From a virus (lineage: Duplodnaviria; Heunggongvirae; Uroviricota; Caudoviricetes): a stretch of 64,000 bases of DNA. Under the pieces are notes generated by a model. That model was given only the letters and a program-made list of their open reading frames with translations, did no database searches and was not told the DNA's origin. The stretch spans positions 1-64,000 of the IMG/VR virus record IMGVR_UViG_3300005264_000029. One strand, given 5' to 3'. A program made the position numbers and the translations under genes. This document shows positions 3,625-60,884 of this stretch, one piece after another; within the stretch, counting starts at the first letter, position 1; the number at the start of each line of letters is the position of its first letter.

Positions 3625-3681
3625 ATGAAAATCGAGAACAAAGTTCAAGTTATGAACGGAGCGAAGAGAAGTGAATATTAG
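3625..3681 (+). CDS. 18-aa leader mini-ORF (MKIENKVQVMNGAKRSEY) overlapping GTG start of next gene
   Basis: paralogous to 19176..19232 (MVMKIENEVRVLNGVVAK); conserved at nt level. Confidence 0.25.
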   Translation: MKIENKVQVMNGAKRSEY

Positions 3682-4360
3682 TAAGGTAATATTAATTTAC
3701 TTACTATTATTCTTCGGAGTTGTTGGTGCATTTTATTTTCCATATGATATATTTGAAAGTGACGAATCTACATTGGTTATTGATGATATAAAAATATATG
3801 ATAGAGCATTAACTCCTGAGGAAATTCAAGAAGAATTATATACTACAAATACATCACATAACGATGGAACATTGAACGATAAAGAATTTAATGATGGTTT
3901 AGTATATCATGAATCATTCGAAGAACAATTATTACCAAGTAATTTAACAGGTAGTGAAATATCTATATTATCTGAAGAAGCACGAATAGTGTCGATTATA
4001 AATAGTTGGTTTCCTATATTGTTTGGAATGATGTTCCTTATAGTTTTTGTAAATGCATTGACTAGAACAATTTCACCTAGTGCCAATAGGGATTCAGAAG
4101 ATGATGATAATGAAGAAGATTCCGATGAAGACGAAATTGAATGTTTAGAATGTTTAGAGTGTGGTATAGAGTATGAAAAGGAAGATAGTAATGCTACAAG
4201 ATCTGATAGATTCTGTTCAAGAACTTGCGAGAATGAATCTGAGATAGATCCAGATTATTATAATTGTGAAAGTTGTGATAGAGAGTATTATGTAAATGAT
4301 TCTAATGCAAATGATAAAATATCTTATTGTTGTAGAACTTGTGAGAAAAATGACGAATAA
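3671..4360 (+). CDS. membrane-anchored acidic protein with LamG C-terminal-motif fragment and two FCS-like zinc ribbons
   Basis: GTG start; 'IDDIKIYDRALTPEEIQEELY' matches the LamG repeat end-motif of the giant proteins; 'CLECLECG...FCSRTC' and 'CESC...YCCRTC'. Confidence 0.5.
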   Translation: MNISKVILIYLLLFFGVVGAFYFPYDIFESDESTLVIDDIKIYDRALTPEEIQEELYTTNTSHNDGTLNDKEFNDGLVYHESFEEQLLPSNLTGSEISILSEEARIVSIINSWFPILFGMMFLIVFVNALTRTISPSANRDSEDDDNEEDSDEDEIECLECLECGIEYEKEDSNATRSDRFCSRTCENESEIDPDYYNCESCDREYYVNDSNANDKISYCCRTCEKNDE

Positions 4361-4729: not shown

Positions 4730-4749
4730 TAAGTTTATAAATACTTAAG
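4730..4749 (+). promoter_or_regulatory. class-A promoter 'AAGTTTATAAATACTTAAGT'
   Basis: 28 nt upstream of ligase ATG; 'GGGTGAAACGAAATG' SD region follows. Confidence 0.5.
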
Positions 4750-4777
4750 TATTAATATAATTAATGGGTGAAACGAA

Positions 4778-6157
4778 ATGGATACTGAGCTATTAGAAAA
4801 AATAAAGAATACTCCTGGAACAAATGATAAGATCTTTTTATCAGTAACAGGATTTAAAGATGATGAACATTTGTACATGACTGAATGTTTTAGTAAGAAA
4901 ATATATGGAATAGCAAAAACAAGTATTGCAAAAGCTATTGGATATGATAAAGAACATTATGGAACATTTGAAGATCTAGGAGAATTCTTAATTACAAGAC
5001 CACTTGGAGGATATGATGTTTTATCTTCTGAAGATTCTGATTATAGCTTAACTGATTTAAATAAGTTCTTAGATGGTCTAGAAAATATATCAGGTGATGA
5101 TCAAATTAATGAATTACAGAATAGATTAATTAAAGTAGACCCTTTATATAGACCTTATTTTGTAAGAGTGTTACTTAAGGATCCTAGGATGGGAATATCA
5201 TTAAAGACATATAATTCTATTAGGATTAAATCTAAGTTGAAACCTATTAAAGTACATATTGTAAAATTAGCTGAGTTACTTGAAACATCTATTCCACCAA
5301 AACCTGATGATTTTGCTAAATTAAGTTTTCCTGTATATGAAGAAAATAAAGAGGATGGAATCAGAATTTTGGTTGAATACAAGAATAAAACCGTTAAGTT
5401 AACTTCAAGAGACGGTAATGATATTACAGTGCAATATCCTGAGATAGTTAAATATACTAAAGGATTATTTGATTATTATAATGATGTAGATTCTATTACT
5501 CTTGATGGTGAAATCGTGTCATCTAGTTTCAATGCTTTACAAAAAAGAATGAACCGACTTGAGGGAAATTTAAATATAGATTTTGATCTTAAATTAGTAA
5601 CATACGATATTACTGAGATCAATGGAAAGGATTTAATTGATTTTCCATTAGCTGATAGAAGGTTACAATTAGAGACAATCAATAAATTAATGCCCGAGTT
5701 TATATTAAGTGAAATGATTGTTTGTAATACTAAGGAAGAAATATATGAACTTTTTAAAAAAGCAATTGATAATAAGGAAGAAGGTATAATGCTTAAATCA
5801 CCAAAATCTAAATGGGCAAAGAAAAAAGATGATAGAAAGGATTGGTGGAAGGTAAAGGATATTCGTGAAAATACATTTGAAATTGTTGATTTAGATTATG
5901 GTAATGGTAAGAACAAAGATGTTTTCACAATTGTATATGTAAAGGATAAAACAGGTAATATTAATTCAAAGGTTAGTGGTGGGTTATCAGATGCTGATAA
6001 AAAAACATTAACCGAAAAAGGAAAAGAATATTGGATTGGTAAATGTGTTGATATTCAATATAATCAAATAACATCTAAGAACTCTCTTAGACATCCTAGA
6101 ATAATTAAATTCCGGTTTGATAAAACTGTTGCAGATACTATAGAAAATGATGATTAG
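4778..6157 (+). CDS. ATP-dependent DNA ligase
   Basis: motif I 'KEDGIRIL' (KxDGxR), III 'LDGEIV', IV 'EGIMLK', V 'WWKVK'. Confidence 0.85.
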   Translation: MDTELLEKIKNTPGTNDKIFLSVTGFKDDEHLYMTECFSKKIYGIAKTSIAKAIGYDKEHYGTFEDLGEFLITRPLGGYDVLSSEDSDYSLTDLNKFLDGLENISGDDQINELQNRLIKVDPLYRPYFVRVLLKDPRMGISLKTYNSIRIKSKLKPIKVHIVKLAELLETSIPPKPDDFAKLSFPVYEENKEDGIRILVEYKNKTVKLTSRDGNDITVQYPEIVKYTKGLFDYYNDVDSITLDGEIVSSSFNALQKRMNRLEGNLNIDFDLKLVTYDITEINGKDLIDFPLADRRLQLETINKLMPEFILSEMIVCNTKEEIYELFKKAIDNKEEGIMLKSPKSKWAKKKDDRKDWWKVKDIRENTFEIVDLDYGNGKNKDVFTIVYVKDKTGNINSKVSGGLSDADKKTLTEKGKEYWIGKCVDIQYNQITSKNSLRHPRIIKFRFDKTVADTIENDD

Positions 6158-7207: not shown

Positions 7208-7405
7208 ATGGCAGAAAAATATACTAAAACTTGGTGTTGTGTTTGTGGTAAAGAAACAATTCATACATATAAAATAAGGCATGGGCATAATCAACAAGAA
7301 ATGAAAAAAGCTCAAAAAGAATTACTTGAGGAATACTTTAAATTTGAAAGAAAAGATAGAAATTCTTTTATGATTTCAGAATTAAACAAACTTTCAAACA
7401 ATTAG
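7208..7405 (+). CDS. array member, zinc ribbon, C-term ...KLSNN (65 aa)
   Basis: 'CCVCGKE'; 5' 104 bp duplicated at 7794-7897. Confidence 0.45.
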   Translation: MAEKYTKTWCCVCGKETIHTYKIRHGHNQQEMKKAQKELLEEYFKFERKDRNSFMISELNKLSNN

Positions 7406-10643: not shown

Positions 10644-10772
10644 ATGACAAAAGGAAAAAAAGTATATTTAACAGAAGAACAAGCACTTGAATTAATTGAA
10701 TTAAGGCAAAAATTAAATTTAGAAAAAAATTTAAGTGGAATAGAAATTATTATCTTCTTGAGGATAAATTAA
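10644..10772 (+). CDS. array member (42 aa), duplicate of 7409 gene with different tail
   Basis: 102-bp identity to 7409-7510. Confidence 0.3.
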   Translation: MTKGKKVYLTEEQALELIELRQKLNLEKNLSGIEIIIFLRIN

Positions 10773-12678: not shown

Positions 12679-12749
12679 ATGTCCGAAAGCAAAGCTTGAG
12701 GTTATGAATGAAGTCCAAATGAAACAACGTGTAGAGAGGAACGAACGAA

Positions 12750-13124
12750 ATGAATGTAACTGATACAATAACAATGCAAGTGTACGATGATGTAAAATCG
12801 TTTTTAGTGGATGCTGGACAAATAGCAGCAGATGGAGCAACTCAGGGATTTGAGATAATGGTCATGAAACATTTCTGGGTTGATGGTGTAGTTACACTAA
12901 TATTATCTATTATAGGAATGATAGCATGGATATTCTTTTTTATTAAATGGATTAAAATATTAAAAGAATCGAGGGAAGATGTATTTATAAGTGCAGCAAT
13001 GTTTGGTGGAATGATATTAGTAATGTCACTTATAGGATTAATATCTGCCTTATATAGTGGAGCAGCAAATGTATTTATTCCTGAGTATTATGCTATCATG
13101 GATATAATTGAAGTTGTCAAATGA
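12750..13124 (+). CDS. two/three-TM membrane protein (124 aa)
   Basis: ORF track; hydrophobic segments. Confidence 0.45.
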   Translation: MNVTDTITMQVYDDVKSFLVDAGQIAADGATQGFEIMVMKHFWVDGVVTLILSIIGMIAWIFFFIKWIKILKESREDVFISAAMFGGMILVMSLIGLISALYSGAANVFIPEYYAIMDIIEVVK

Positions 13125-13334: not shown

Positions 13335-13628
13335 TTATTTAAAAATACTTATAAGTCCAAATGCTGCAAGTACAATAATTCCTACTGCAATTAAAGCAAA
13401 TCCTGCGAACACAGTTGTTTGAGTACTTGCTACTCCGTCAACATATCCTGTATCATCCATTGTTAAGGATGTATTATCTACACATGGAGCAACTACTGGT
13501 CCTCCTAAACATGCATTATCTATTTGTGGAGTTGGTAATGCGTCTTTTACTTTAGCTATAACTAAATATCCGATCATAATTACTATTCCGATTCCTATTG
13601 CCGCGATGGCTATTTCCATAAATACCAT
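13335..13628 (-). CDS. small hydrophobic two-helix protein; candidate spindle-virus-type major capsid protein (VP1/VP3-like), paralog A
   Basis: N-term 'MVFMEIAIAAIGIGIVIMIGYLVIA' and C-term 'FAGFALIAVGIIVLAAFGLISIFK' are nearly identical to 13788..14015; fold class inferred. Confidence 0.45.
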   Translation of the reverse strand: MVFMEIAIAAIGIGIVIMIGYLVIAKVKDALPTPQIDNACLGGPVVAPCVDNTSLTMDDTGYVDGVASTQTTVFAGFALIAVGIIVLAAFGLISIFK

Positions 13629-13662
13629 TTTTATATGATATTAATATTATAGCACTTACTCT

Positions 13663-13710
13663 TTATATATGTAATTATTTATGACCACTAGATAATAATT
13701 ACATATATAA
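13663..13710. promoter_or_regulatory. bidirectional class-B promoter: perfect 18-bp inverted repeat TTTATATATGTAATTATT / AATAATTACATATATAAA
   Basis: lies between divergent paralogs; same motif upstream of minus-strand structural genes at 59940, 60556. Confidence 0.55.
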
Positions 13711-13787
13711 ACCTCCAGCGATATAACTTACTATCCTGAGAGAGGAGATGTAAAAATCTTCGCACTCTATAACGGTATTAAATTAAA

Positions 13788-14015
13788 ATGGTATTCATGG
13801 AAATCGCAATCGCAGCTATTGGAATCGGAGTGGTTCTAATGGTAGGTTACTTAGTTGTAGCTCAAGTTAAAGCAGCATTACCAACAGAAAGTTTGGATAA
13901 TGAAACAATTGATGGAATTAATTCCGCGCAAACAACTGTTTTCGCAGGTTTTGCATTAATCGCAGTTGGAATTATTGTTCTAGCAGCATTCGGTCTAATC
14001 AGTATTTTTAAATAA
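13788..14015 (+). CDS. small hydrophobic two-helix protein; candidate major capsid protein, paralog B
   Basis: 75 aa; shares N- and C-terminal helices with 13335..13628. Confidence 0.45.
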   Translation: MVFMEIAIAAIGIGVVLMVGYLVVAQVKAALPTESLDNETIDGINSAQTTVFAGFALIAVGIIVLAAFGLISIFK

Positions 14016-14029
14016 ATACTCTTTTGGCT

Positions 14030-15400
14030 TTTCACAATTCAAACTAAAGGTTTATAAACACTTAATTATTAATATTTCTTAATGACAAAAACTTCTTTAA
14101 AAGTTAGATTGCGAATCAACAAATATAAATACAATATTCTAAAAACATTATGTTTACATTCTAAAAATCTTTATAATCAAGCGAATTATTTAATACAACA
14201 ATATTATAAATATACTGGAAAATATTTAACTTATTATGATATGTATTATATTATGCGAAATCGTGAAAATTTAGAACATGAAATTAATTTTAAAAAATTA
14301 AAATCTGGTGTATCGCAACAAGTACTAATGATACTAGATACAAATTGGAAAGCATATTTTAGAAGTGTTAACGATTGGAAAAAAAATAAATCAAAATATA
14401 ATGGGTTACCAAAACCGCCTGGATATATAAAAGAATATAATAATTTAGTGTATACATATGTGGTATTTCAAAATAAAAATAAATATATTCAGTTGGAAAA
14501 AAAATTAGGAATAAACATAGATATACCAAAACAATTAATAAATAAAAATATAAAACAAATAGAAATAATTTCACGACGAGAATGTTTTGAAGCTGTGTTT
14601 GTGTATGATGACGCAGTAAAGTATAAACAAATTGAAAAGAATGATAATGTATTAGGAATTGATTTAGGATTAAATAATATAGCTACTTGTGTCAGTAATA
14701 ATATAAAACCGTTTGTAATTAATGGTAAACCGTTAAAATCAATAAATCAATATTCTAATAAAAAAATAGCAAAAACTAAAAGTTGCTTGGAACATAGGAA
14801 TACCGTTAAGACAAGTAAGAAGATTATACAATTATATTATAAACGTAATAATAAAATTAGTGATTATTTGCATAAGGCTAGTAGACTAATAGTTAATAAG
14901 TGCGTGGAGAATAATATCTCCAAAGTAATCGTTGGTGATATAAGTAAATCACTTACCAAGATTAATCTTGGTAAAAGAAACAATCAAAATTTCATAAATA
15001 TCTCATTAGGCCAGTTTGTTGATAAAATAAAATACAAACTTGAGAAGCACAATATTAAAACAATTATAACTAATGAGAGTTATACATCAAAGTGTTCATT
15101 CATTGATAATGATACACTTCCACAGAAATTAGATACCAGTAAGAAATTTGTATTTAGTGGTAAAAGAATTAAACGTGGAATGTATAGAACTAAGAATAAT
15201 ATCTTAATAAATGCTGATGTGAATGGTGCTTATAATATAATTAGAAAAGTAATACCAAAGTTTGATATTAATTTATTAAAGGATGGTATAGAGGGAGACA
15301 CTATGTGTCGTTGGTTACACCCACATAAATTAACTGTATAAGTTTACAGTCTTTATGGTATTCAAATATTATTTAAAACTAAAGGTTTATAAATAATTAA
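14030..15400 (+). mobile_element. IS200/IS605-family TnpB-only (IS1341-like) element or domesticated derivative
   Basis: TnpB ORF flanked by 'AAACTAAAGGTTTATAAA' at 14036 and 15374; no tnpA. Confidence 0.5.
14082..15341 (+). CDS. tnpB: TnpB/OrfB-like RuvC-fold protein; RuvC-II and zinc finger appear degenerate
   Basis: 'GIDLGLNNIATCV' (RuvC-I), 'NFINISLGQFVDKIKYKLEKHNIKTIITNESYTSKCS', 'NADVNGAYNIIRK' (RuvC-III); expected 'xEDL' reads 'VIVGDI' and only one Cys remains in the CxxC...CxxC region. Confidence 0.75.
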   Translation: MTKTSLKVRLRINKYKYNILKTLCLHSKNLYNQANYLIQQYYKYTGKYLTYYDMYYIMRNRENLEHEINFKKLKSGVSQQVLMILDTNWKAYFRSVNDWKKNKSKYNGLPKPPGYIKEYNNLVYTYVVFQNKNKYIQLEKKLGINIDIPKQLINKNIKQIEIISRRECFEAVFVYDDAVKYKQIEKNDNVLGIDLGLNNIATCVSNNIKPFVINGKPLKSINQYSNKKIAKTKSCLEHRNTVKTSKKIIQLYYKRNNKISDYLHKASRLIVNKCVENNISKVIVGDISKSLTKINLGKRNNQNFINISLGQFVDKIKYKLEKHNIKTIITNESYTSKCSFIDNDTLPQKLDTSKKFVFSGKRIKRGMYRTKNNILINADVNGAYNIIRKVIPKFDINLLKDGIEGDTMCRWLHPHKLTV

Positions 15401-18042: not shown

Positions 18043-18104
18043 ATAAAATGAACGAAGAGAATTTTAATTTACCGACTGAAGTGCAACGAAAGGAGGATAA
18101 ATAA

Positions 18105-19175: not shown

Positions 19176-19232
19176 ATGGTAATGAAGATCGAGAATGAAG
19201 TTCGAGTTCTGAATGGAGTGGTAGCGAAATGA
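19176..19232 (+). CDS. 18-aa leader mini-ORF (MVMKIENEVRVLNGVVAK) overlapping next gene start by ATGA
   Basis: paralog of 3625..3681. Confidence 0.25.
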   Translation: MVMKIENEVRVLNGVVAK

Positions 19233-19471
19233 AGACAAAAACAATAACAATTAGAAAAATTAAAAGGTCGTCAAAGCCAGTTAATGTTAATCCTGGAATA
19301 GTAACTATGAAAGCTGAGAAGTCTCCTAAATTACTGCGTAAGAGTAATGCAAAGCCTATAAAGAAAACAACTAAGTTGAAAGTAAAGAAATGTAAGCCGG
19401 CAAAGAAACTTAAAAAATCATTAGTATCTGCAGGTAATAAATTTAAAAAGGCTATACTTTCAAAAATTTAA
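19229..19471 (+). CDS. highly basic Lys-rich small protein (80 aa), probable DNA-binding protein
   Basis: about 35% K/R: 'KPIKKTTKLKVKKCKPAKKLKK'. Confidence 0.5.
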   Translation: MKTKTITIRKIKRSSKPVNVNPGIVTMKAEKSPKLLRKSNAKPIKKTTKLKVKKCKPAKKLKKSLVSAGNKFKKAILSKI

Positions 19472-19716: not shown

Positions 19717-20661
19717 ATGTCTGCATTTGGAGAGATAGGAGAAGTATCTGTACTTATTGATTATGAGGAATATATGAAACGTCTTGGTCACAAACCATCA
19801 TATATATATCCTTCAATGGTGGCACTGCGATGTTTCGTAAAGGAAGGATATAATTGGGAGAAGTATGAAGACTATAATAGATTCTTAATAAAACACACCG
19901 TTAATAAAAGATCTACTGCTTACTTTGATGTATTAAAGAAATTTGTTAAATGGAAATTTAAGGAAGATAGAGAATTAAAAAATATAGTACTTGAATCTAT
20001 TCAGATGACAGGTAAAAAAGCTAGAGATCCTAAACCAAGAAACTCTATAATTACCGAAGCTGAACAAATGAGAATAATTCAAAACATAAAAACACCAAAA
20101 CATCAATTAATAGCATGGCTTCAAAAAGAATCAGGTGTTCGTGCCGGTGATGTACTTCGTACTTTAAAAGATAATTTTAAAATGGGAATGTATACTGATG
20201 ATGATGGCAGTGTGAGAAAAGTAATGGATATTGTATTTGTTAAGAAAGGTGACAGAGTTGCAAAGATTCCTATTTTTAATCCACATTTAATTCAATACTT
20301 AAAAGTACATTTAGAAAATTTAGATGGTGATGAAGATCTAGCGTTTATTAATAGAGATGTTGTTAGTAAAAAAAATAAAGATAATGAATATGCACTTATT
20401 CGTAGAAACTATAATTTATATCATGCTGATCTGAAACAAGCTTGTGATGATCTTGGATATGACTCAGGACAATTCTCAACTCACGATTGGAGAAGAAATT
20501 TTGCAAATAGAATTTGGGTTGATGTTCTTAAGAAAAATGATATCGTGGCACTCCAACGTGCGATGGGTCATTCACAAGTTGAAACAACGGCAATCTATTT
20601 AAGACAATCAGGATTACAAAGTAGAGATATATACAAACAGTCATATGATTTATCTAAATAA
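19717..20661 (+). CDS. int: tyrosine recombinase/integrase (XerC/D-like)
   Basis: 'GVRAGDVLRTL' (Arg-I), 'THDWRRNFA' (H-x-x-R), 'GHSQVETTAIYLR' (catalytic Tyr). Confidence 0.8.
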   Translation: MSAFGEIGEVSVLIDYEEYMKRLGHKPSYIYPSMVALRCFVKEGYNWEKYEDYNRFLIKHTVNKRSTAYFDVLKKFVKWKFKEDRELKNIVLESIQMTGKKARDPKPRNSIITEAEQMRIIQNIKTPKHQLIAWLQKESGVRAGDVLRTLKDNFKMGMYTDDDGSVRKVMDIVFVKKGDRVAKIPIFNPHLIQYLKVHLENLDGDEDLAFINRDVVSKKNKDNEYALIRRNYNLYHADLKQACDDLGYDSGQFSTHDWRRNFANRIWVDVLKKNDIVALQRAMGHSQVETTAIYLRQSGLQSRDIYKQSYDLSK

Positions 20662-20679
20662 TTATAATTATTTAGATAA
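20650..20679. repeat. 30-bp perfect palindrome TTATCTAAATAATTA|TAATTATTTAGATAA overlapping integrase stop codon
   Basis: checked base by base; 'GATTTATCTAAATAATTA' repeated at 20706-20723. Confidence 0.85.
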
Positions 20680-20746
20680 TCCAAACGAAGTGTTAGCGAA
20701 GTGCAGATTTATCTAAATAATTAATGTAATTAGTACATAATAAAAA

Positions 20747-21930: not shown

Positions 21931-22161
21931 ATGGGAAAAGAAATGATAATTGTAACTCCAGAATTTCTAGAAGAAATATCGATGCATATGACACATGGAA
22001 TATTATGTGATAAAAAAGTACGTAAACCTAATGGAAGTATTGATGGTGAATTAGTTAATAAATATATTTTAGAAAAACTAAAGAAAGTTTATATTTTGAA
22101 AGTTTATATTTTAGGAGCTAAAGATAAGAACATTTCAATTAATAAAAATGAAATCAAATAA
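21931..22161 (+). CDS. hypothetical protein (76 aa)
   Basis: ORF track. Confidence 0.4.
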   Translation: MGKEMIIVTPEFLEEISMHMTHGILCDKKVRKPNGSIDGELVNKYILEKLKKVYILKVYILGAKDKNISINKNEIK

Positions 22162-23850: not shown

Positions 23851-24588
23851 ATGTATGTTAAGAAAATTAAAAAAAATAAAGTATGTATAGTATGTAATGA
23901 GAAATTCATAGCTGCTAGAAGTGACACAAAAGCATGTTCTAAAAAATGTAGATCTAAAAAATATGTTGATAGTAATAAAGATAAGATTAAACAATATAAT
24001 GCCGATCATAGTATGAAACATAGAAAATATATGAAACAATATAGGATAGATAATCGTGATAAGATTAAACAATATAATATAGATAATTCTGAACATATTA
24101 AAGTATATAGAAAACAATATAGAGCAGATCATATAGAACAAACAAAAGCGTATAAAAAACAATATAATATAGATAATGCCGAGAGTATTAAAGAATATAG
24201 AAAACAATATAGAGCCGAATACGGTGAGTGGCTCAAGGCGCAAAGTAAAATATATTATAGAGAAAACATAGAACAGTTCAAACAGTATGCTATAGATAAT
24301 TCTGAGGGTATTAAAGAATATCAAAAACAATATTATATCAAATATAAATGTATTATTAATAGTAATAGAAATCTATATTATAACTTAAATTCTGATCGTG
24401 AAAGGTTTTATAGTTCATTATATAATAAGACTCATAAACAGGAACGCACTATATATAATAAAAAATGGAATACATTAAATAAAAAATATATATCATTATA
24501 TAATAAGATAAAAAATAAAACAGGTGTATCATTACCTATAGTGATGATTCGTGAAGGATATGAAGAACTATCTTCAATACATATATAA
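23851..24588 (+). CDS. FCS-type zinc-finger protein with about 10 tandem 'K(Q/E)YxxDNxExIK' repeats
   Basis: 'CIVCNEKF...ACSKKCRSKKY' then KQY-repeats; C-term 'LPIVMIREGYEELS' shared with 24591 gene. Confidence 0.55.
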   Translation: MYVKKIKKNKVCIVCNEKFIAARSDTKACSKKCRSKKYVDSNKDKIKQYNADHSMKHRKYMKQYRIDNRDKIKQYNIDNSEHIKVYRKQYRADHIEQTKAYKKQYNIDNAESIKEYRKQYRAEYGEWLKAQSKIYYRENIEQFKQYAIDNSEGIKEYQKQYYIKYKCIINSNRNLYYNLNSDRERFYSSLYNKTHKQERTIYNKKWNTLNKKYISLYNKIKNKTGVSLPIVMIREGYEELSSIHI

Positions 24589-24590
24589 AG

Positions 24591-25112
24591 ATGGAATATA
24601 AAAAGATCGAGAAACACAGCGTAGTAAAGATCTGTGAAATATGTGGTAAAGACTTTATAGATGAAACTAAAAGTCACTGTCAGAGAATCTGTGGATCGAG
24701 AACTGAAAGTTCGAGTTCCGATGGAAGCGAAGTGAAAGGAGGGAATAAAGAATGTCAATTAGAAAGAGATAGAAGACGACAGAGAGCATATTATAAATCT
24801 AATGATTCATATGCTGCAAAAGCTAAAAGAGCTACTAAAATCTATTATAAGAATAATACTAAAAAATGTTTAGCATACCAGCAGCTATATAGAATAGAGA
24901 ATCCAGAGGTTATTAAATATCATAATACGAACTGGAATAAAGATAATAGGTCAGAGTATAGTAGAAAATATAATAGATCCTGGAGATTAAAGAATTTAAA
25001 ATATGAACAGTTAAGTGATAAAATAAAATGGAGAATAAAAACTACTATTCCTATAGAAATTATACGTGAGAAATATTCAGAATTATCAGATACATTTATA
25101 AAATCCGCATAA
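24591..25112 (+). CDS. FCS-type zinc-finger protein paralog (173 aa)
   Basis: 'CEICGKDF...HCQRICGS'; C-term 'IPIEIIREKYSELS'. Confidence 0.5.
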   Translation: MEYKKIEKHSVVKICEICGKDFIDETKSHCQRICGSRTESSSSDGSEVKGGNKECQLERDRRRQRAYYKSNDSYAAKAKRATKIYYKNNTKKCLAYQQLYRIENPEVIKYHNTNWNKDNRSEYSRKYNRSWRLKNLKYEQLSDKIKWRIKTTIPIEIIREKYSELSDTFIKSA

Positions 25113-25134
25113 TACAGTAGCATTATGCGGATTT
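25101..25134 (+). terminator. 13-bp perfect stem-loop followed by T-run
   Basis: AAATCCGCATAAT-acagtagc-ATTATGCGGATTT then TTTT; unusually GC-rich. Confidence 0.5.
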
Positions 25135-25148
25135 TATAATATATAAAG

Positions 25149-25313: not shown

Positions 25314-25694
25314 ATGGAAGATAATCACGATAACATAATGTATCCGAAAGCATCGAAGACCGAAGGTCTGAGTTGCGATCGAAACGAAGTGAAGAGAGCA
25401 GTTAATAAAAAAGACTGGAAATTAGGTGATAAATTTATTAATGCTAGAAAATATAAATCTGGAGAGGATACATTTATTTACACTATATATCAGTTTCATA
25501 GTGACTGCACTAACTTTATATGTGCTAGATCAGAAGATGATTCATGTGGAATTTTATTTGAACCTGGAGAGATTATACCTATAAATGGAAAAATGTATAT
25601 AGAACTCATGGATACTAGAATAGCTAGAAAGGAACAGGAAGTAGCTGATCTACGAGCTGAGAGAAATGATATATTATATGGATTTAAAAAATGA
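25314..25694 (+). CDS. hypothetical protein (126 aa)
   Basis: ORF track; contains left arm of 58-bp inverted repeat. Confidence 0.45.
   Translation: MEDNHDNIMYPKASKTEGLSCDRNEVKRAVNKKDWKLGDKFINARKYKSGEDTFIYTIYQFHSDCTNFICARSEDDSCGILFEPGEIIPINGKMYIELMDTRIARKEQEVADLRAERNDILYGFKK
25343..25399. repeat. left arm of about 58-bp inverted repeat (partner 26594-26652)
   Basis: reverse complement matches partner with one indel. Confidence 0.8.
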
Positions 25695-25960
25695 TGAAAA
25701 AAATATCATATACGCAGCAGGAATTAAAAAATCATAAGAAAGCATACATATCCATAGCTCTACTTTTCGGTGGGGGAATATTAATAGTCTTTGAAAGTAT
25801 GTGGACATTTACTATCGGATGGTTCTCTATATGTCTAAGTTGGTTTCTTATTGCAGCTACAGCATACTCGCATGGATGGGAATTAAAAAGAATATCCGAG
25901 CACGAAGTGCGAGATTATGACCGTAGCGAAGTGGAGAGAATAAGTATGGATGATGACTAA
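25691..25960 (+). CDS. membrane protein (89 aa)
   Basis: ORF track; two TM helices. Confidence 0.45.
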   Translation: MMKKISYTQQELKNHKKAYISIALLFGGGILIVFESMWTFTIGWFSICLSWFLIAATAYSHGWELKRISEHEVRDYDRSEVERISMDDD

Positions 25961-26072
25961 TATCTTAATTACATATACTTCTTTCATTTCGCTACGTTGC
26001 ACTACACTCGTGAATATTATTAAAGCTAACGCTTTAATTACATATATAAATTATTAACCATATATAATATAT

Positions 26073-26552
26073 ATGAATGAATTTCTAAAGACATTAATAG
26101 AAGGTCTAGTATTTACATTATTAATTATGATCATTGTGTTCTCAGGGATTTATGGAATGTTATTCGTGTTAGATACTAAATATAACACGCACGTCCTTAC
26201 AGAACCTCTACCAGTTTTTAAACATAATAATATACAGAATTCTCATAGTGAATATAGATCAGGCCTATTACATCATATGGCTAGGGAATTAAACTATACA
26301 GTGAATGTAGTCGCTGGAGCAAGTATGGAGCCTACTATTTTCGACGGTGATAATTTTATATGCGATCCTAAATTAACTCCTCAGATAGGAGATATAGTTC
26401 TAGTTAATAGAATTAATAATACCGAGTATGTACATAGAATACGCGCTATTTATTCAGATCATGTAGTTACTCAAGGTGATGATAATAACTATATAGATCC
26501 AGATATTAATATGTCTGATATAGAATGTGTGGTCGTAGGTGTATACTACTGA
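26073..26552 (+). CDS. type I signal peptidase (S26/Sec11-like; SF clan)
   Basis: N-terminal TM anchor; 'VVAGASMEPTIFDGD' (Ser box), 'GDIVLVNRINNTEYVHRIRA' (His where S24 has Lys), 'GDDNNYIDPD' (GDNN box). Confidence 0.6.
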   Translation: MNEFLKTLIEGLVFTLLIMIIVFSGIYGMLFVLDTKYNTHVLTEPLPVFKHNNIQNSHSEYRSGLLHHMARELNYTVNVVAGASMEPTIFDGDNFICDPKLTPQIGDIVLVNRINNTEYVHRIRAIYSDHVVTQGDDNNYIDPDINMSDIECVVVGVYY

Positions 26553-26593
26553 TACCTCATTACACTTCACTATCAATCGTAACCTCAAGCTTC

Positions 26594-26652
26594 GCTCTCT
26601 TCACTTCGTTTCGATCGTAACCTCAGACCTTCGGTCTTCGATGCTTTCGGAT
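26594..26652. repeat. right arm of about 58-bp inverted repeat
   Basis: see 25343-25399. Confidence 0.8.
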
Positions 26653-26675: not shown

Positions 26676-26703
26676 CATTTATAAATACTTAAGTACTTAT
26701 ATA
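26676..26703 (+). promoter_or_regulatory. class-A promoter 'CATTTATAAATACTTAAGTACTTATATA'
   Basis: motif match upstream of ATG 26713. Confidence 0.45.
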
Positions 26704-27231: not shown

Positions 27232-27594
27232 ATGGCAAAAGAAATAAAAGTGTGCGCCGCATGCGATAGAGATTTTAAAGTAAATAAAGATAGTCATATA
27301 ATTAGATGTCCTATATGTAGACAAGCTAATAATAATTATAAATATAATTATAGAACTAGGCGTTCAGATTTCATTAAAAAATATAATACTTACTTCGATT
27401 TAAATCGAATTAATAGTACAACCGGATTCTTTAATCTAGGACTTAATAAATGCTCATTAGAATTAGGAACTAAAATAGATAACATACAGGATTATGATAA
27501 ACATATAGAACATATAAGATCGATAATTTCAAGACTGCAAAGTGATATCTTAAAACTTAAAGTATTAAGTCATGAACGGAACGAAGAGAAGTGA
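27232..27594 (+). CDS. FCS-type zinc-finger protein (120 aa)
   Basis: 'CAACDRDF...RCPICRQANNNYKY'. Confidence 0.5.
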   Translation: MAKEIKVCAACDRDFKVNKDSHIIRCPICRQANNNYKYNYRTRRSDFIKKYNTYFDLNRINSTTGFFNLGLNKCSLELGTKIDNIQDYDKHIEHIRSIISRLQSDILKLKVLSHERNEEK

Positions 27595-27627
27595 ATATTA
27601 CTAAACTAGAATCACTAAAAAATAAAA

Positions 27628-28191
27628 ATGAATGAAATCATTATGAATAATATAGTAAAAGAAAATATAGAACTCAATAATAAAATAGAGATTTTATCAA
27701 ATACAATAGAGACTTTAAGGATAAAGATTAAAAATCAAGCAGATCATATTACTAGAGAAAATAAAATTAGGTCAAATGAAAGGCCTAAGATTATAAAGAT
27801 AGTATCTCCTACTAAGGAATCTGAAGGTCATGAGATTAAAAGATTACATAAACTCATACATAACTTAACTGAGAAACATTTAAAATTACAAGAGAAATCT
27901 GTAAAATATATAGCAAGGAATATGCAACTACAAGATGAACTTAAGCGCGCATCTTATTTAGATATTACAGGTAAATTCATATTCGCTAAATGTAAATTAA
28001 AATCCTATACAGGCTATGTACTTAAAGAAACTCTAAGACATATAATTATCGAAACAACAGCAGAAGATCCATATCAATATATATTTCATAAGAATGAAAT
28101 AAGAGGCGTGAAGATCTTTCATGATTTATATACTGAGGATCGAGAGACAAAAACTGAGTTTCGAACGAAACTCCGTGAAGTGAGGAACTAA
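27628..28191 (+). CDS. coiled-coil protein (187 aa)
   Basis: ORF track. Confidence 0.5.
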   Translation: MNEIIMNNIVKENIELNNKIEILSNTIETLRIKIKNQADHITRENKIRSNERPKIIKIVSPTKESEGHEIKRLHKLIHNLTEKHLKLQEKSVKYIARNMQLQDELKRASYLDITGKFIFAKCKLKSYTGYVLKETLRHIIIETTAEDPYQYIFHKNEIRGVKIFHDLYTEDRETKTEFRTKLREVRN

Positions 28192-29473: not shown

Positions 29474-29487
29474 CTAGGCATGCCTAG
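29474..29487. promoter_or_regulatory. perfect 14-bp palindrome CTAGGCATGCCTAG; first TGCCTAGA cluster (29474-29545)
   Basis: motif about 20 times in window vs about 6 expected, in four clusters. Confidence 0.5.
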
Positions 29488-29802
29488 ACCAGCACTAGAA
29501 AATCTAGGCATGATCTTGTTCTCTAATTTTTCCTAGGCATGATCTTGATCTCGATTTTTTCAAATTCTTATAAAATCAATTTCGTATTTAATATCAATCG
29601 ATTTCGAATTCAATTAAAATCAATTTCGAATTCAATCGAAATAATAAAACACCCATACGAAATCGATATAATACACTATTGAATAAAACACGAAATAAAC
29701 ATATTTTTCTAAGTAGTAAAAAAGTTTTTATTTTTCACTTTTTAGTTATAAAAATATACTCAAAAAATAAACTTATACTTTACTCTTTTATAGTGGTTAT
29801 AA

Positions 29803-31071: not shown

Positions 31072-31167
31072 ATGAATATACCAAATATATTAAAAAATAA
31101 AAGAAACGGCGACTTTATAGAAATTGAGTATAAAGAAAATTTAAATAATATGGAGTTAAGAAAATGA
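31072..31167 (+). CDS. hypothetical peptide (31 aa)
   Basis: ATGA coupling into RadC gene. Confidence 0.2.
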   Translation: MNIPNILKNKRNGDFIEIEYKENLNNMELRK

Positions 31168-31544
31168 AAAAAATAAAAATTTCAAATAGTGACGCAGTTT
31201 TTAAGAATATTAAAAAACATTTTGATTTATACCAAGAAAATTTTATATTAATTGGTATAAATTCAAATAGTGAAATATTATTAAATGAAGTAATTTTTAA
31301 AGGGGGTGTAAATAATTGTAACATTGATTTAAAGATTATATTTAAAAAATTATTATTAAATAATTGTACTAGTTTTTTTATTGCACACAATCACCCAAGT
31401 AAAAATTTAAATCCAAGTCAATCAGATTTAACAATAAATAATAAAATAAAAAAAGCTAGTGAAATATTAGATTTAAAATTATTAGATAGTTTAATATTTA
31501 GTGATAATAATTTTTATTCGTGTTTTGATAATGAGGTTTTATAA
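31164..31544 (+). CDS. radC: RadC-like JAB/MPN domain protein
   Basis: 'FIAHNHPSKNLNPSQSDL' matches JAB H-x-H-x(7)-S-x(2)-D. Confidence 0.65.
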   Translation: MKKIKISNSDAVFKNIKKHFDLYQENFILIGINSNSEILLNEVIFKGGVNNCNIDLKIIFKKLLLNNCTSFFIAHNHPSKNLNPSQSDLTINNKIKKASEILDLKLLDSLIFSDNNFYSCFDNEVL

Positions 31545-32047: not shown

Positions 32048-32110
32048 TGCCTAGATCTCGATGCCTAGATTTTAAAGAACAAACTGTGCCTAGATTTTTT
32101 TCTAGGCATT
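32048..32110. promoter_or_regulatory. second TGCCTAGA motif cluster (4 copies)
   Basis: GTGCCTAGATCTCGATGCCTAGATT...TGTGCCTAGATTTTTTTCTAGGCA. Confidence 0.45.
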
Positions 32111-35767: not shown

Positions 35768-35935
35768 CATGCCTAGATTGAAAGTATGCCTAGATTTTTA
35801 AACTTACTTAGATGCCTAGAGTGAAATAATATTCACTACTTTAATATATTATATTGTTCTTAAAATAATTAAAAAATTAATGAAATTATATTATAATTTA
35901 AATTTAAATCAAGTGACATAAGTCTAGGCATCTAC
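35768..35935. promoter_or_regulatory. third TGCCTAGA motif cluster (4 copies)
   Basis: CATGCCTAGATTG...TATGCCTAGATTT...GATGCCTAGAGTG...GTCTAGGCATC. Confidence 0.45.
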
Positions 35936-37120: not shown

Positions 37121-37268
37121 AAATGGTAAAAATTAATGAAGAATATATTATAGAACAAGGTCAAGAAGTTTATGGGGATATTAGAAATACAATAGATGAA
37201 GTTTTATTTAATGAGGATTATTAAAATGAGTGTAACGAATTTTAATAAACTGAACGAAACGAAGTGTA

Positions 37269-37451
37269 GTGAGGAATACTAAAATGAATGTAAAAGAATT
37301 AAAACAATTACTTACTAAGTTTGATGATAATATTGAAGTGTTAATATCTATGGATAGTGAGGGAAATATGTATCATAATTTAGATGATATTTATCATAAT
37401 AAAACTCAATTGGTTTTATATCCAAATGATGAAGATATAGAGGTAGATTAA
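37269..37451 (+). CDS. hypothetical 'MNVKEL' protein (60 aa); paralog of 41404 gene
   Basis: ORF track; CGAAACGAAGTG leader upstream. Confidence 0.4.
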   Translation: MRNTKMNVKELKQLLTKFDDNIEVLISMDSEGNMYHNLDDIYHNKTQLVLYPNDEDIEVD

Positions 37452-37453
37452 AA

Positions 37454-37633
37454 ATGGAAATTAATACAAGACTTGAAATGAGCGAATTAATACTTGATTT
37501 AATTGTAAAGAAAAGAAACACAGATTTAACACCAATTGAAAATAGAAGTTTAGAAATATTACAAAGAGTAAGAGAAGAGGATTTGAGCGATAGTGAAATA
37601 CCGAATGAAGTAAAACGAAATGATGATAATTAA
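37454..37633 (+). CDS. hypothetical protein (59 aa) ending 'LSDSEIPNEVK...'
   Basis: C-terminal box repeated at end of 37779 gene. Confidence 0.35.
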   Translation: MEINTRLEMSELILDLIVKKRNTDLTPIENRSLEILQRVREEDLSDSEIPNEVKRNDDN

Positions 37634-37778: not shown

Positions 37779-38351
37779 ATGGAAAATAGATATAATTTAA
37801 GAATTGGAAACGATAGTAAGATTTACATTAATGGTGAAGTTATTAATGATGAAATATTCACACAAGAAAAATGTGGGTATGTTGTTGAAGAAAGAGATGA
37901 AACTATTAATAATCTAATTAATTGGATTAGTGAAAATTCAAGTAATCACGAAAGAGAATTAATGAAAGATGATTTAAAATATTTAATGAGTTGTACCGAT
38001 AAATATTTATTTAGTGATGTATCTACAAATAGTTATATTTTAGAAGAAACTGATATTTGTGTATTTGATAATATTTGTGAGGACATTTTAAATTTAAATC
38101 GAAATGGTAATAAAGTTATGAAAAGATATAATGTATCTTTTTTAGTATATGAAAGAGTTTGTCAATACATTGAAACTGATGAAACTGATGAAGATAAAAT
38201 ATTTGAAATGGCAGTAGATAAAGCGACAAAAGAACAAGAAAAAGTATATTGGCAAGTTGATAATCATATGATTGGAACTGATGTAGAAATTGAGAATTTG
38301 AGCGATAGCGAAATACCGAATGAAACGAAGTGTAATAAGGGGTTAGATTAA
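37779..38351 (+). CDS. acidic hypothetical protein (190 aa)
   Basis: ORF track. Confidence 0.5.
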   Translation: MENRYNLRIGNDSKIYINGEVINDEIFTQEKCGYVVEERDETINNLINWISENSSNHERELMKDDLKYLMSCTDKYLFSDVSTNSYILEETDICVFDNICEDILNLNRNGNKVMKRYNVSFLVYERVCQYIETDETDEDKIFEMAVDKATKEQEKVYWQVDNHMIGTDVEIENLSDSEIPNETKCNKGLD

Positions 38352-42498: not shown

Positions 42499-42611
42499 TT
42501 ATGAAAGTACTTTGTGATGTTTATATATTTCATCATTAAATAAAATATAGTATCCTTAAAACTTAGTTTTTAGGTCACGACCGAAACGAAGTGCAGGGAA
42601 TAAAATTAAAA

Positions 42612-43222: not shown

Positions 43223-43367
43223 GCATACTTTTTATTTAATTTGATTTATGTATAATAAAACATATAATCTCTTTAAGATACTCGTTTCGTTACACTTCAA
43301 TCGTGACTTAATGTTCATTAAGATCAAGTGCCTAGACTTATACAAATTTATATTAATTCTTCCCACA

Positions 43368-43471
43368 CATATAACTTATATTCTTATTACATTCGAGAAT
43401 AAGTTTATTTCATATAACTTATATTCTTATTACATTCGAGAATAAGTTTATTTCATATAACTTATATTCTT
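43368..43471. repeat. 43-bp tandem repeat x2.4 with internal short hairpin, at convergent strand switch
   Basis: CATATAACTTATATTCTTATTACATTCGAGAATAAGTTTATTT twice plus partial. Confidence 0.85.
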
Positions 43472-43695: not shown

Positions 43696-43803
43696 TATGC
43701 CTAGTTATGAATTTCAAAATTTATAAACCTTTGTTTATATATCTACTATAAATTTATACTTGCCTAGAATGTGAATTGTTTTCGATTGAATTCGAAATTA
43801 AAA

Positions 43804-43983
43804 ACGATTTTAATTATTAAGGCATGCCTATGCCTAGATGCCTATGCCTAGATAACATTTAATGAAGAATTCAATTGAAAATAAAAACTATTTTAATTAT
43901 TAAGGCATGCCTATGCCTAGATAACATTTAATGAAGAATTCAATTGAAAATAAAAACTATTTTAATTATTAAGGCATGTCTTA
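43804..43983. repeat. about 69-bp tandem repeat x2.5 containing GGCATGCCTATGCCTAGA iterons; fourth TGCCTAGA cluster 43690-43990
   Basis: copies at 43804-43887 (with 14-bp internal duplication), 43888-43956, partial 43957-43983. Confidence 0.85.
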
Positions 43984-43992
43984 ATAGAAGAA

Positions 43993-44232
43993 TTATTTAA
44001 TTTTTGTAAAATAGATGTTAAAATCAAAAGGTTTTTTCTTTGTAATCACAAGTGTATTATTAGGACCATTTAGAATCATTACATTATCAGTGTATCGATT
44101 TAAATTGTTTATGATTCTAGTAATATACGTTTCATTAATAGTCTTTTTGTCAAAGACTATTTGATTTTGTACTTTTAAATTACTGAACTTATTATATACA
44201 TCGAATTTTTGTGTTATTATTTTTATAGCCAT
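43993..44232 (-). CDS. hypothetical protein (79 aa)
   Basis: ORF track. Confidence 0.4.
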   Translation of the reverse strand: MAIKIITQKFDVYNKFSNLKVQNQIVFDKKTINETYITRIINNLNRYTDNVMILNGPNNTLVITKKKPFDFNIYFTKIK

Positions 44233-60611: not shown

Positions 60612-60884
60612 TTACTGTTGCATTATACCAGAAACGAAGAAATATAACATTACGGTAAGTACTAATAGAATAGGTATTATTTCCCAATAGGATATCCATT
60701 CAGAATTCATTTGTTCAATCATTGCTTTATTTGGTGATTCATCATCAATCATTCCTTCAATTGTTGGTTGATAGTCTACTTGTATTACTTGGTTAAATAC
60801 AATATAAAGTATTCCAAGGCCGAATAGAAATCCTAATCCATATATAAAATTAAAGGCTAACGAACCTTTTTTATTAAACGTCAT
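60612..60884 (-). CDS. two-TM small membrane protein (90 aa)
   Basis: paralogous in topology to 60887..61183. Confidence 0.45.
   Translation of the reverse strand: MTFNKKGSLAFNFIYGLGFLFGLGILYIVFNQVIQVDYQPTIEGMIDDESPNKAMIEQMNSEWISYWEIIPILLVLTVMLYFFVSGIMQQ

Follow-up and report, generated by a model that had tools for sequence, protein, structure and literature searches.

The 64,000-nt stretch analysed here (positions 1 to 64,000 of IMG/VR virus record IMGVR_UViG_3300005264_000029; henceforth the window) has a GC content of 27%, and its genes are read from the plus strand over 1-43 kb and from the minus strand over 44-64 kb. Among the genes recognised are those for TatC, an SPFH protein, an ATP-dependent DNA ligase, TnpB, a tyrosine recombinase, an S24/S26 peptidase with a membrane helix, a PD-(D/E)XK nuclease, a RadC-like protein and two giant laminin-G proteins. 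Since none of the window genes was recognised as a hallmark virion gene or as coding for an RNA polymerase or sigma factor, we call the element virus-like or plasmid-like and assign it to no host. Our subject is a family of structured repeats in this window, present in at least 10-12 copies, nearly all of them on the sense strand of the non-structural gene block. A first-pass annotation had noticed two short open reading frames (mini-ORFs) and a recurrent 12-mer, CGAAACGAAGTG, upstream of many starts, and had read them as a shared 5' leader element. We found that the 12-mer belongs to a hairpin whose pairs covary, that this hairpin often stands at the junction of two genes, and that its tip recurs far outside the window.

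Alignment of the copies defines a unit of roughly 55-75 nt in which an ATC and, after it, a 5' hairpin (HP1) are joined through a GAGTT linker to a conserved block with a purine-rich tail, often followed by an ATG. Its mean GC content is 41%, compared with 27% for the genome. The 12-mer is the apical half (core positions 4-15) of a second, irregular hairpin of 37-41 nt (HP2), whose 21-nt core reads G-A-N-C-GAAAC-GAA-GUG-N-A-G-N'-G-A. A closing stem of 2-8 pairs, derived from the flanks, leads into tandem G.A pairs (core 1.21 and 2.20) and Watson-Crick pairs 3-19 and 4-18, above which a purine-rich internal loop is followed by A8-U14, C9-G13 and a GAA triloop. The AGGGAA previously reported after the 12-mer corresponds to the hairpin's 3' arm or closing stem plus the Shine-Dalgarno (SD) sequence. 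HP1, which usually precedes HP2, is variable: it mostly has a 4-5 bp stem with an ATC before it and a GAA triloop (five copies), and its sequence differs among copies while the pairing is kept (GAAC/GTTC, AACT/AGTT, AGACC/GGTCT, GCAC/GTGC, CTTAAAAC/GTATTAAG, CCTTAAAAC/GTTTTTAGG and a 12-bp stem at 20652). The two halves of the unit assort independently, as the copies at 3631 and 27547 have a common 3' half, and one HP1 type is common to the copies at 27547, 42552 and 43326(-). The copies at 25352 and 26642(-), by comparison, are nearly identical across about 60 nt.

The family was recovered by several searches. The first-pass annotation had named a lack of enrichment over a shuffled AT-rich background as the outcome that would speak against its motif; we found enrichment, with 12 matches to the 12-mer at up to two mismatches against 1.52 +/- 1.21 in 100 dinucleotide shuffles (largest count 6). 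A 20-nt position weight matrix gave 19 matches where 1.1 were expected, and a profile search of the window gave 11 at E<0.05, ten of them on the plus strand. A covariance model built from the sequences of other organisms only detected eight window copies, with E values from 7.5e-10 to 0.04. (Bit scores given below come either from the profile or from this covariance model.) In the ten regular window copies, 79% of HP2 cells are paired against 66% in shuffled alignments, and the covariation score is 0.464 against 0.247, a value reached in none of 500 shuffles, with slid controls at 0.07-0.17. Pair 3-19 occurs as A-U (five times), U-A (twice), C-G and U-G, and pair 4-18 as C-G and U-A. The covariation among copies that had been proposed as a check is present in HP2.

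The sites listed for the 12-mer in the first-pass annotation are of uneven quality. Those at 20685, 25380, 26600(-), 37250, 38330 and 42580 are good matches, and the related word, the 22-mer GAACGAAGAGAAGTGAATATTA, is indeed found again at 27579-27600. The site at 28165 bears a variant only (CGAAACTCCGTGAAGTG), that at 4770 has two mismatches and an ATG that is the ligase start, and those at 12735, 18080 and 43290(-) are weak or rearranged copies. Of the proposal of a shared cis-element, the placement stands: a putative gene start lies within -25..+20 nt of the core end in 7 of 12 copies, compared with 12.5% of random positions, and an ATG lies 12-15 nt past the core in 7 of 12, compared with 10%. 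The SD of the next gene is contained in the 3' arm or closing stem of HP2 as GAGGAA (28185, 37273), AAGGGG (38339), AGGGA (42595) or AGGAGGG (24737). In five cases (the copies at 3631, 19188, 28139, 37244 and 38290), the upstream frame ends at or next to the following start, with overlaps of 11 nt (3631) and 4 nt (19188) and gaps of 5, 1 and 1 nt (at 28189, 37280 and 38349). The frame that reads through is a separate short ORF at three of these junctions and the tail of a real gene at the other two (28139 and 38290).

The copy at 3631..3682 (plus strand; HP1 GAAC-AAA-GTTC, HP2 core 3654-3674, profile 30.1 bits) lies between the stop of the SPFH gene (3621) and a 229-aa gene, with GTG 3671 in the 3' arm of HP2 and GGAG in the 5' arm. 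We take this GTG to be the true start, since the orthologue in a related contig (L120) begins MKLSKV where the protein here begins MNISKV. The mini-ORF that crosses this copy (3625..3681, plus strand, 18 codons, MKIENKVQVMNGAKRSEY and stop) opens with an ATG 3 nt downstream of the preceding stop (TAA-AAG-ATG), runs across the repeat and terminates 8 nt beyond the next start. The second mini-ORF (19176..19232, plus strand, 18 codons, MVMKIENEVRVLNGVVAK and stop) begins 1 nt after the upstream stop and overlaps ATG 19229, the last ATG of the element, as ATGA. It crosses a divergent copy at 19188..19238 (plus strand; HP1 GAAT-GAA-GTTC, an irregular HP2 with TAGCGAAATG, profile 19.6 bits) in a variable segment flanked by a 126-aa and an 80-aa gene. 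Both mini-ORFs exist and overlap the following start as first described. In a gapped alignment, they agree in 41 of 63 columns, and in about 82% over the common ATGAA.ATCGAGAA...GGAG part. A third short ORF (37196..37282, plus strand; 28 codons, or 18 from an inner ATG at 37226) crosses a copy reduced to HP2 (core 37252-37272, plus strand, covariance model 30.8 bits), with the SD GAGGAA in the 3' flank and a stop 1 nt before ATG 37284. That mini-ORFs 1 and 2 begin 1-3 nt past the preceding stop is not peculiar to them, as the TAA-AAG-ATG style is that of ordinary gene junctions here.

At several other copies, real genes or untranslated leaders take the place of the short ORFs. The copy at 28139..28191 (plus strand) lacks HP1 and has its HP2 core at 28163-28183, with a TCC loop and an 8-bp stem TGAGTTTC/GGAACTAA (covariance model 21.7 bits); the upstream 187-aa ORF stops at 28189-28191, the 3' arm of HP2 contains the SD GAGGAA, ahead of the next start at 28197. 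The copy at 38290..38346 (plus strand; HP2 core 38318-38338, pair 4-18 being U-A, covariance model 21.4 bits) lies in the last 19 codons of a 190-aa ORF whose stop (38349-38351) nearly touches the next start (38353), and its SD, AAGGGG, pairs with CC. Paralogous to it is a weak, decayed copy at 37580..37625 (plus strand), in the tail of a 59-aa ORF (EDLSDSEIPNEVKRNDDN and stop). A true intergenic leader holds the copy at 42552..42607 (plus strand; HP1 CCTTAAAAC-TTA-GTTTTTAGG, HP2 core 42579-42599, covariance model 39.2 bits), about 25 nt after a TATA-like box at 42520 and ahead of ATG 42613. Directly 3' of the tyrosine-recombinase gene, a divergent copy at 20652..20703 (plus strand) has a 12-bp AT hairpin followed by CCAAACGAAGTG and TTAGCGAAGTG, and an arm of this hairpin recurs at 20712-20728.

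Other copies lie in the interior (24695), head (25352) or tail (25894 and 27547, without a close downstream gene) of ORFs. The copy at 24695..24748 (plus strand; HP2 core 24720-24740, covariance model 14.8 bits) is inside a 173-aa Zn-ribbon ORF, where it is translated in frame as GSRTESSSSDGSEVKGGNK; its AGGAGGG and an ATG at +12 (24752-24754) open only a 6-codon out-of-frame ORF. That at 25352..25405 (plus strand; HP1 AGACC-GAA-GGTCT, HP2 core 25377-25397 with closing stem TGAGTTGC/GCAGTTAA) has the highest significance (covariance model 40.3 bits, E 7.5e-10), falls within the first 30 codons of a 126-aa ORF and forms a near-identical inverted pair with 26588-26642. The copy at 25894..25947 (plus strand; HP1 GCAC-GAA-GTGC, HP2 core 25919-25939, closing stem TTAT/ATAA, covariance model 24.8 bits) makes up the last ~20 codons of an 88-aa ORF and carries an SD-like GGAGAGA, the downstream ATG opening only a 4-codon ORF. 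A weak, partial inverted copy nearby (25975..26003, minus strand, with CAACGTAGCGAAATG, profile 5.4 bits) pairs with 25930-25940 as a long-range inverted repeat. Within the copy at 27547..27602 (plus strand; HP1 CTTAAAAC...GTATTAAG, HP2 core 27574-27594, profile 26.5 bits), the upstream 120-aa ORF stops inside HP2 (TGA 27592-27594), and the 3' 35 nt are those held in common with the 3631 copy. We also observed three paralogous Zn-ribbon proteins (245, 173 and 120 aa) encoded in this copy-rich region (23851-25112 and 27232-27594), with repeated K-x-Y-x-x-x-N/R motifs; two of the three contain a repeat copy.

The minus-strand copies lie in non-coding gaps. A tandem pair at 26545..26642 (covariance model 37.7 bits), one copy full (26588-26642, with its HP2 core at 26616-26596) and the other partial (26545-26591), lies between the S24/S26 peptidase-like gene and a promoter-like motif at 26678, and a weak, rearranged copy at 43270..43326 (profile 11.6 bits) sits in a convergent intergenic region with no gene after it. 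Two plus-strand copies are marginal: CTGAAGTGCAACGAAAGGAGG at 18064..18104, 13 nt before ATG 18105 (profile 7.4 bits; covariance model 9 bits, E 2.5), and a decayed TCCGAAAGCAAAGCTTGAGGTTATGAATGAAGT...GAACGAACGAAATG at 12693..12752, which ends at ATG 12750 (profile 8.4 bits). The 12-mer-like word TGAAACGAAATG at 4769..4780 (plus strand), in a short leader after a promoter-like motif at 4734, forms no hairpin, ends in the ligase start codon and probably lies outside the family.

The first-pass annotation had offered control by upstream ORF peptides as one explanation. It is not supported as the general mechanism, as a separate short ORF spans only 3 of about 12 copies (3625, 19176 and 37196), the others sitting in untranslated leaders or within real ORFs, be it at the head, at the tail or in the interior. 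Neither peptide sequence nor frame is conserved among the copies. Because the element is translated in all three frames, its conservation is at the level of nucleotides and structure, and the likeness of the two mini-ORF peptides follows from it. The mini-ORFs are thus three cases of a wider pattern, in which an upstream frame crosses the element and stops at the next start.

Comparison with known structured elements gave no assignment. Searches of Rfam 15, whose families include hammerhead, twister, pistol, hatchet and hairpin ribozymes, riboswitches and leaders, returned nothing on the element, whether with the window at gathering score or, up to E 10, with the copy-rich 24.6-28.3 kb and 24 external loci. 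By eye, the hammerhead's CGAAAC is present and CUGAUGA is not, and twister, pistol, hatchet and hairpin ribozymes were likewise negative, with which Rfam agrees. The layout does not fit N4-type hairpin promoters or nut/boxB sites. Integron attC sites (57-141 nt, GTTRRRY core) do not fit on inspection, given hairpin arms of 4-5 bp and no RYYYAAC/GTTRRRY. CRISPR or solitary repeats were set aside because the copies are diverged, irregularly spaced (by hundreds to thousands of nt) and placed at gene junctions, and no array was found.

Relatives of the element were found through its ATP-dependent DNA ligase: four contigs from the same and similar samples, one labelled groundwater, with 44-55% ligase identity and partial synteny. 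Word search, profile and covariance model found no repeat copy in the 44.6 kb of these four. At the junction of the SPFH and 229-aa genes in L120 there is no repeat and the two genes simply overlap, and the segment before the recombinase gene in a second relative (L122) holds a 150-aa gene, in place of which the window has a 126-aa gene and an additional 80-aa gene with the repeat between them. We conclude from the absence in the relatives and at two comparable junctions that the family is recent or private to this lineage.

The hairpin core itself is not private. Scanning with GAYCGAAACGAAGTGNAGRGA, for which about 4 chance matches are expected in 596 Gb on both strands (our calculation, with 19 effective positions), revealed 71 loci in species-representative genomes and at least 120 in metagenomes. 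In nearly all external loci, the 21-mer caps a hairpin, and the stems of these hairpins bear no relation to one another. Across 32 independent contexts, the closing stem covaries (0.274 against 0.137, reached in none of 500 shuffles; slid controls about 0.1), and every external GAUC core has AGAGA, so that the 3-19 pair is kept; since the search pattern fixed the core, the information in these figures comes only from the flanks and from positions 3, 16 and 19. Shorter loop variants (GACCGNAGGGA, GAGCGACAGCGAC) occur in the same hairpins. MITE-like elements of Calothrix, Nostoc and Rivularia carry the core in many copies per genome, often at contig ends, where it reads GCG-[24 nt]-ATCG/C. In termite-gut Treponema contigs, it is found in tandem and intercistronic hairpins, with a stop 9 nt before it; the starts that follow 10 nt later belong to unrelated genes (such as aroA-like and map-like ones), to which it supplies AGGGAGG. 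It is also the tip of stem-loop I in the ssoT-type single-strand origin of small rolling-circle plasmids of Bacillales (101 plasmid matches), with a short form, GACCGTAGGGA, in the pTA1060 origin and a diverged form in pMA67, and it is present in Acidobacteria, Bacteroidota, Ignavibacteriota, Poribacteria and Thermoplasmatota. A 15-mer scan of IMG/VR viral contigs gave mostly single matches, with strong HP2 hairpins at four loci, one of which has a weaker second copy, and in GenBank phages the core is only marginally present. Literature searches on the raw sequence words returned only primers.

A longer element of ~130 nt with the HP2 core was seen to be ~95% identical in several CPR/DPANN metagenome-assembled genomes (L249:6700-6830; L254, L258, L265, L284 and L285), assigned to Nomurabacteria, Parcubacteria, Shapirobacteria, Woesearchaeota and Methanosarcinales. 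The L249 copy lies right against a truncated aminotransferase gene. Its occurrence could reflect cross-domain transfer, a shared mobile element or binning contamination.

Operon heads are marked by another motif, distinct from the hairpin repeat. This AT-rich two-box sequence, aaaGGTTTATAAA-tACTTAAGTAc-TTATATA (or GGTTTATAAA-N11-TTATATA), lies 5-20 nt before starts at 1971, 4734, 11078, 14051, 15386, 21104, 26678, 32323 and 36103 on the plus strand and at 43727 on the minus strand, and recurs in relatives (L120:7561, L122:3464 and L124:3926). It is likely the basal promoter of near-leaderless mRNAs and resembles an archaeal BRE/TATA as much as a bacterial -35/-10 pair. A scan for sigma-70 promoters and terminators gave no excess over shuffles. 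The tnpB gene (IS605 OrfB, 14082-15341) is flanked by an 18-nt direct repeat, AAACTAAAGGTTTATAAA (14040-14058 and 15375-15393), that is the promoter-like motif; either the insertion sequence entered a promoter-like site or it carries a copy. An origin of the repeat in TnpB omega-RNA or IS605 ends was dismissed, as these flanks bear the promoter-like motif and not the repeat. A variant, partly palindromic motif, aggTTTATATAtgtaattattatctag, recurs on the plus strand around 13.7 kb (13662-13711) and inside the minus-strand structural block (57844, 59929 and 60558).

We favour a reading in which the copies are lineage-specific dispersed structured repeats with a ribosome-binding site that mask starts, couple translation and spread as DNA, and to which we give a probability of about 0.42. 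The copies at cistron junctions would be co-transcribed with the plus-strand non-structural gene block. In the mRNA, HP2 would pair the SD; the copies at 3631 and 19188, at least, also enclose the start codon itself. Because HP2 would cover the SD or start, we infer that free ribosomes initiate poorly, whereas a ribosome finishing the upstream frame, be it a gene tail or a mini-ORF, would melt HP2 and so couple the cistrons. The hairpins may also act as barriers that stabilise the mRNA. As DNA, the family would have spread by insertion or recombination, HP2 being one of a class of very small hairpin modules dispersed in bacterial and archaeal genomes and plasmids. At 24695 and 25894 the SD and ATG are present but lead into ORFs of just 6 and 4 codons, which suggests that the ribosome-binding site travels with the unit as it spreads.

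Several observations tell against this reading. Coupling is deduced from junction geometry. Gene junctions are tight here even without the repeat, so a stop beside a start is partly background, and three or four copies have nothing downstream to regulate: one is internal (24695), one has no gene near it (25894), and two are on the minus strand. Predicted RNA stabilities are modest, folding of single HP1 sequences was not significant against shuffles, and RNAalifold on a MAFFT alignment of the copies gave nothing convincing; it missed the HP2 fold because MAFFT misaligned the hairpin region. GAA triloops closed by C-G and tandem sheared G.A pairs are classic features of single-stranded DNA hairpins. 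Given this architecture and a core that recurs in a plasmid single-strand origin, a role at the DNA level is worth noting. Finally, the absence in relatives is equally compatible with a selfish and with a regulatory repeat.

A selfish, SDR- or REP/MITE-like small mobile repeat, without function for its carrier, is a possible but on the whole doubtful explanation. Only tolerated insertions would remain, namely sense copies at junctions, equipped with an SD and ATG of their own, and copies in non-coding gaps regardless of orientation. The lack of the repeat in four relatives and at two orthologous or syntenic junctions would follow, as would copies within ORFs translated in three different frames, SD and ATG pairs at 24695 and 25894 that open next to nothing, two minus-strand copies in non-coding gaps, the 41% GC of the unit in a 27% genome, and a core dispersed in unrelated genomes, at contig ends, nested in cyanobacterial MITEs and inside a HIP1-like site. 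By contrast, the window copies show no transposase or target-site signature, the ~65 ORFs scanned include no HUH/Y1 transposase, and the covariation indicates a fold kept under selection among copies. Several downstream genes, moreover, rely on an SD or start inside the element, which is therefore at least co-opted. Our data do not separate the coupling and selfish readings, and co-option would make both true. Far less probable is a single-stranded DNA signal for sso/ssi-like priming or initiation on the displaced plus strand. The d(GCGAAGC) of Hirao and co-workers, a C-GAA-G triloop with G.A pairs, is reportedly a stable DNA mini-hairpin, the identical 21-mer caps stem-loop I of ssoT in the 101 Bacillales plasmids (in pTA1060 as the short variant GACCGTAGGGA), and the window encodes a RadC-like protein (31164-31544). 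The strict strand bias of the copies would also agree, yet as it equals gene orientation it does not discriminate between DNA and RNA. Only the apex is common, with no match in the window to any other part of ssoT, and since this apex differs among functional origins (pTA1060, pMA67 and L282), it would seem to be a tolerated insertion there and not the active part. Neither a rolling-circle Rep nor a relaxase was found in the window, and a DNA role leaves the fixed ATG spacing and SD content unexplained.

The T4 RegA protein regulates translation at many early start regions, and the repeat could in the same way be an operator where a trans-acting protein or small RNA, of the element or the host, binds HP2 or its loop and so controls the translation of a set of non-structural genes. 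Such a factor is also the explanation put forward for the start-associated sequences of Cluster K mycobacteriophages (PMC3203893), to which the placement in start regions, in one orientation and in the non-structural block, runs parallel. The loop is conserved and the stem variable, in the window and elsewhere. We consider this slightly less probable still, as no candidate binding protein was identified in the window, no RNA complementary to the repeat was found there except the inverted copies, and a core present in many phyla would not share a virus-encoded factor. Stoperator-like repressor sites were rejected separately: the S24-like protein encoded between copies has an N-terminal membrane helix, a signal peptidase S26 match and no helix-turn-helix. 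A conserved ~20-nt block directly 5' of an SD is the arrangement of T7-type promoters. The copies have this arrangement and are sense-oriented within long operons, so that transcription by an element-specific RNA polymerase or with a sigma factor, of middle or late class, might start in or just after GAAGTG. Such a promoter is nevertheless very unlikely: it is the two-box motif, common to relatives, that marks operon starts, which speaks against a promoter role for the GC-richer repeat; neither polymerase nor sigma factor was found in the window; some copies are inside ORFs and two lead into no gene; the same core is widespread in cellular genomes; and covariation points to a single-strand fold and not to a duplex site. 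Hardly credible, finally, is leader-peptide control, in which an 18-residue peptide or its codons would sense a signal. Three short ORFs of 18-28 codons do span copies and end at the next start, and two of the peptides are alike, but most copies have no separate ORF, three frames are used, the peptide is not conserved, and the changes are compensatory in the hairpin and not synonymous. Nor did we see alternative terminator/antiterminator structures or a run of regulatory codons.

Beyond these alternatives, one may ask whether the 21-24 nt core GAYCGAAACGAAGUGNAGRGA is an unrecognised cross-domain module common to bacteria, archaea, plasmids and viruses, either the smallest widely mobile element, with hairpin tips and gene junctions as its insertion sites, or a universal start-masking hairpin, recruited here as a portable ribosome-binding-site cassette for non-structural operons. 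We regard this as speculative and somewhat improbable.

Some features of the window bear on its identity. Neither DNA nor protein matches to GenBank phages were found, two window proteins retrieved no relative from IMG/VR, and the window contains no detected tRNA gene or Rfam family at gathering score. By its proteins, the window is placed on an ENA metagenome contig (ERZ23491059 scaffold_45, 126,202 bp). Compared with L119, the ENA contig with the same proteins, segments of 149, 113, 37 and 166 nt are missing in the window; these fall in the region of small genes, with differences at 7294, 7510, 7898, 10745-10749 and 22098-22112, the last being one additional 15-nt tandem copy in the window. 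Such differences are strain or assembly variants. A divergent gene pair (13335-13628, minus; 13788-14015, plus) encodes small two-helix hydrophobic proteins of 97 and 75 aa that are 79-93% identical to proteins of the relatives, compared with ~50-60% for other proteins, and have several paralogues there; they may be major structural or membrane proteins. A small protein encoded at 60612-60884 gave a weak, non-significant match to a His1-type capsid protein.

The window also holds other repeats. At 1-137, a perfect 27-nt tandem repeat (3.9 copies) and then a 15-nt repeat lie in frame within a coding region cut by the window edge. Perfect tandem repeats at 43368-43471 (43-nt unit, 2.4 copies) and 43824-44001 (69-nt unit, 2.0-2.4 copies) occupy the convergent intergenic region where the GC skew changes sign, and may mark an origin with iterons or a terminus. 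Word clusters of (A)TCTAGGCAT / AGGCATGCCT in intergenic regions (29476-29561, 32070-32098, 35778-35798 and 43820-43922), which also occur 3' of the recombinase gene in L122 (12672-12955), are a second conserved repeat, which may be of att or iteron type. An intrinsic-terminator-like bidirectional hairpin (AAAATCCGCATAAT...ATTATGCGGATTTTAT) at 25095-25146, between the 173-aa and 53-aa genes, is a feature of bacterial style and bears on the domain of the host.

The repeats have practical consequences. They give rise to ORFs (three mini-ORFs) or extend them (at least five genes gain 17-20 codons), and one copy supplies a GTG start, so that gene callers mis-describe proteins. If start masking is true, one portable cassette controls a dozen non-structural cistrons and offers a model for the unexplained start-associated sequences of mycobacteriophages. 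A tip common to cyanobacterial mini-repeats, Treponema sites and a plasmid origin, and found in no RNA family library, extends the range of small repeats beyond Nostocaceae and reopens the question of how units of ~20 nt move. Such repeats could also help to tie uncultivated groundwater elements to their hosts.

REP-type repeats affect mRNA stability and downstream expression. Like the window repeat, REP/BIME/REPIN elements (PMC3116915) are short dispersed hairpins within transcription units, often between cistrons, with lineage-specific expansions. Unlike them, the window repeat has no conserved GTAG head and no regular doublets, with a single inverted pair (25352/26642), and the window ORFs scanned include no RAYT/Y1 transposase. 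REPs, moreover, lie outside genes and supply no ribosome-binding sites. Arbiol et al. (2010) are said to have described promoter-early stem-loop (PeSL) cassettes of T4-type phages that come with a sigma-70 early promoter. These too are cassettes of a stem-loop and expression signals repeated between small genes in a plastic non-structural region, and they are implicated in gene shuffling; the window unit, however, has an SD and ATG, no promoter-like boxes and no apparent sequence relation to them. Both REP/REPIN and PeSL are looser analogues than the two discussed last. With ssoT and the sso1 of ICEBs1 (PMC4595007), the repeat has in common the 21-nt core or GACCGTAGGGA at the tip of stem-loop I and orientation-specific hairpins, whereas the three-hairpin origin of ~200 nt is absent and window 42579-42601 matches 22 of 23 nt of the tip only.

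In nature, the closest parallel is the SDR repeats of Nostocaceae (21-27 nt), which we compared as they are described in PMC4390886, PMC5861425 and bioRxiv 10.64898/2026.06.24.733823. On that description, SDRs and the HP2 core are both modules of 21-24 nt, predicted to form hairpins with compensatory changes and embedded in mini-transposons and other hairpins. SDR5 is described there as a 21-nt repeat inserted precisely within HIP1, after its third base (PMC4390886; bioRxiv 10.64898/2026.06.24.733823). The cyanobacterial cores are flanked as GCG-[24 nt]-ATCG (~29 cases), ATCC (33) or ATCT (15), HIP1 being GCGATCGC; the core of Calothrix, Nostoc and Rivularia thus appears to lie inside a HIP1-like octamer at the position described for SDR5, a likeness of position. 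HIP1 was not found in the window. Whereas SDRs are described in these sources as confined to Nostocaceae, the HP2 core occurs in many phyla, in plasmids and in a virus-like element, and the window unit, with HP1, HP2, SD and ATG, is larger than an SDR as described.

In layout, the closest analogue, though by analogy and not homology, is the SAS/ESAS of Cluster K mycobacteriophages (PMC3203893). Both consist of ~11-19 asymmetric copies per genome, restricted to the non-structural half and nearly all in one orientation; the inverted copies that occasionally occur are not associated with genes. Both stand a few bases 5' of start codons and include the SD, about half being preceded by an inverted repeat with a variable spacer, and both are linked to unrelated gene families and confined to one lineage (the HP2 core excepted here). 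The 13-bp SAS consensus GGGATAGGAGCCC has no match in the window at up to three mismatches on either strand. The ESAS arms showed no covariation as RNA pairs and were judged to be DNA-binding sites (PMC3203893), whereas here both hairpins covary; in addition, our core is also found far outside the lineage and several copies lie inside ORFs. The function of the Cluster K SAS is still without a test (PMC12699233). We conclude that the window carries a start-associated, two-hairpin version of the small dispersed repeats, in a virus-like element, and that the cross-phylum distribution of its core appears to be uncatalogued.

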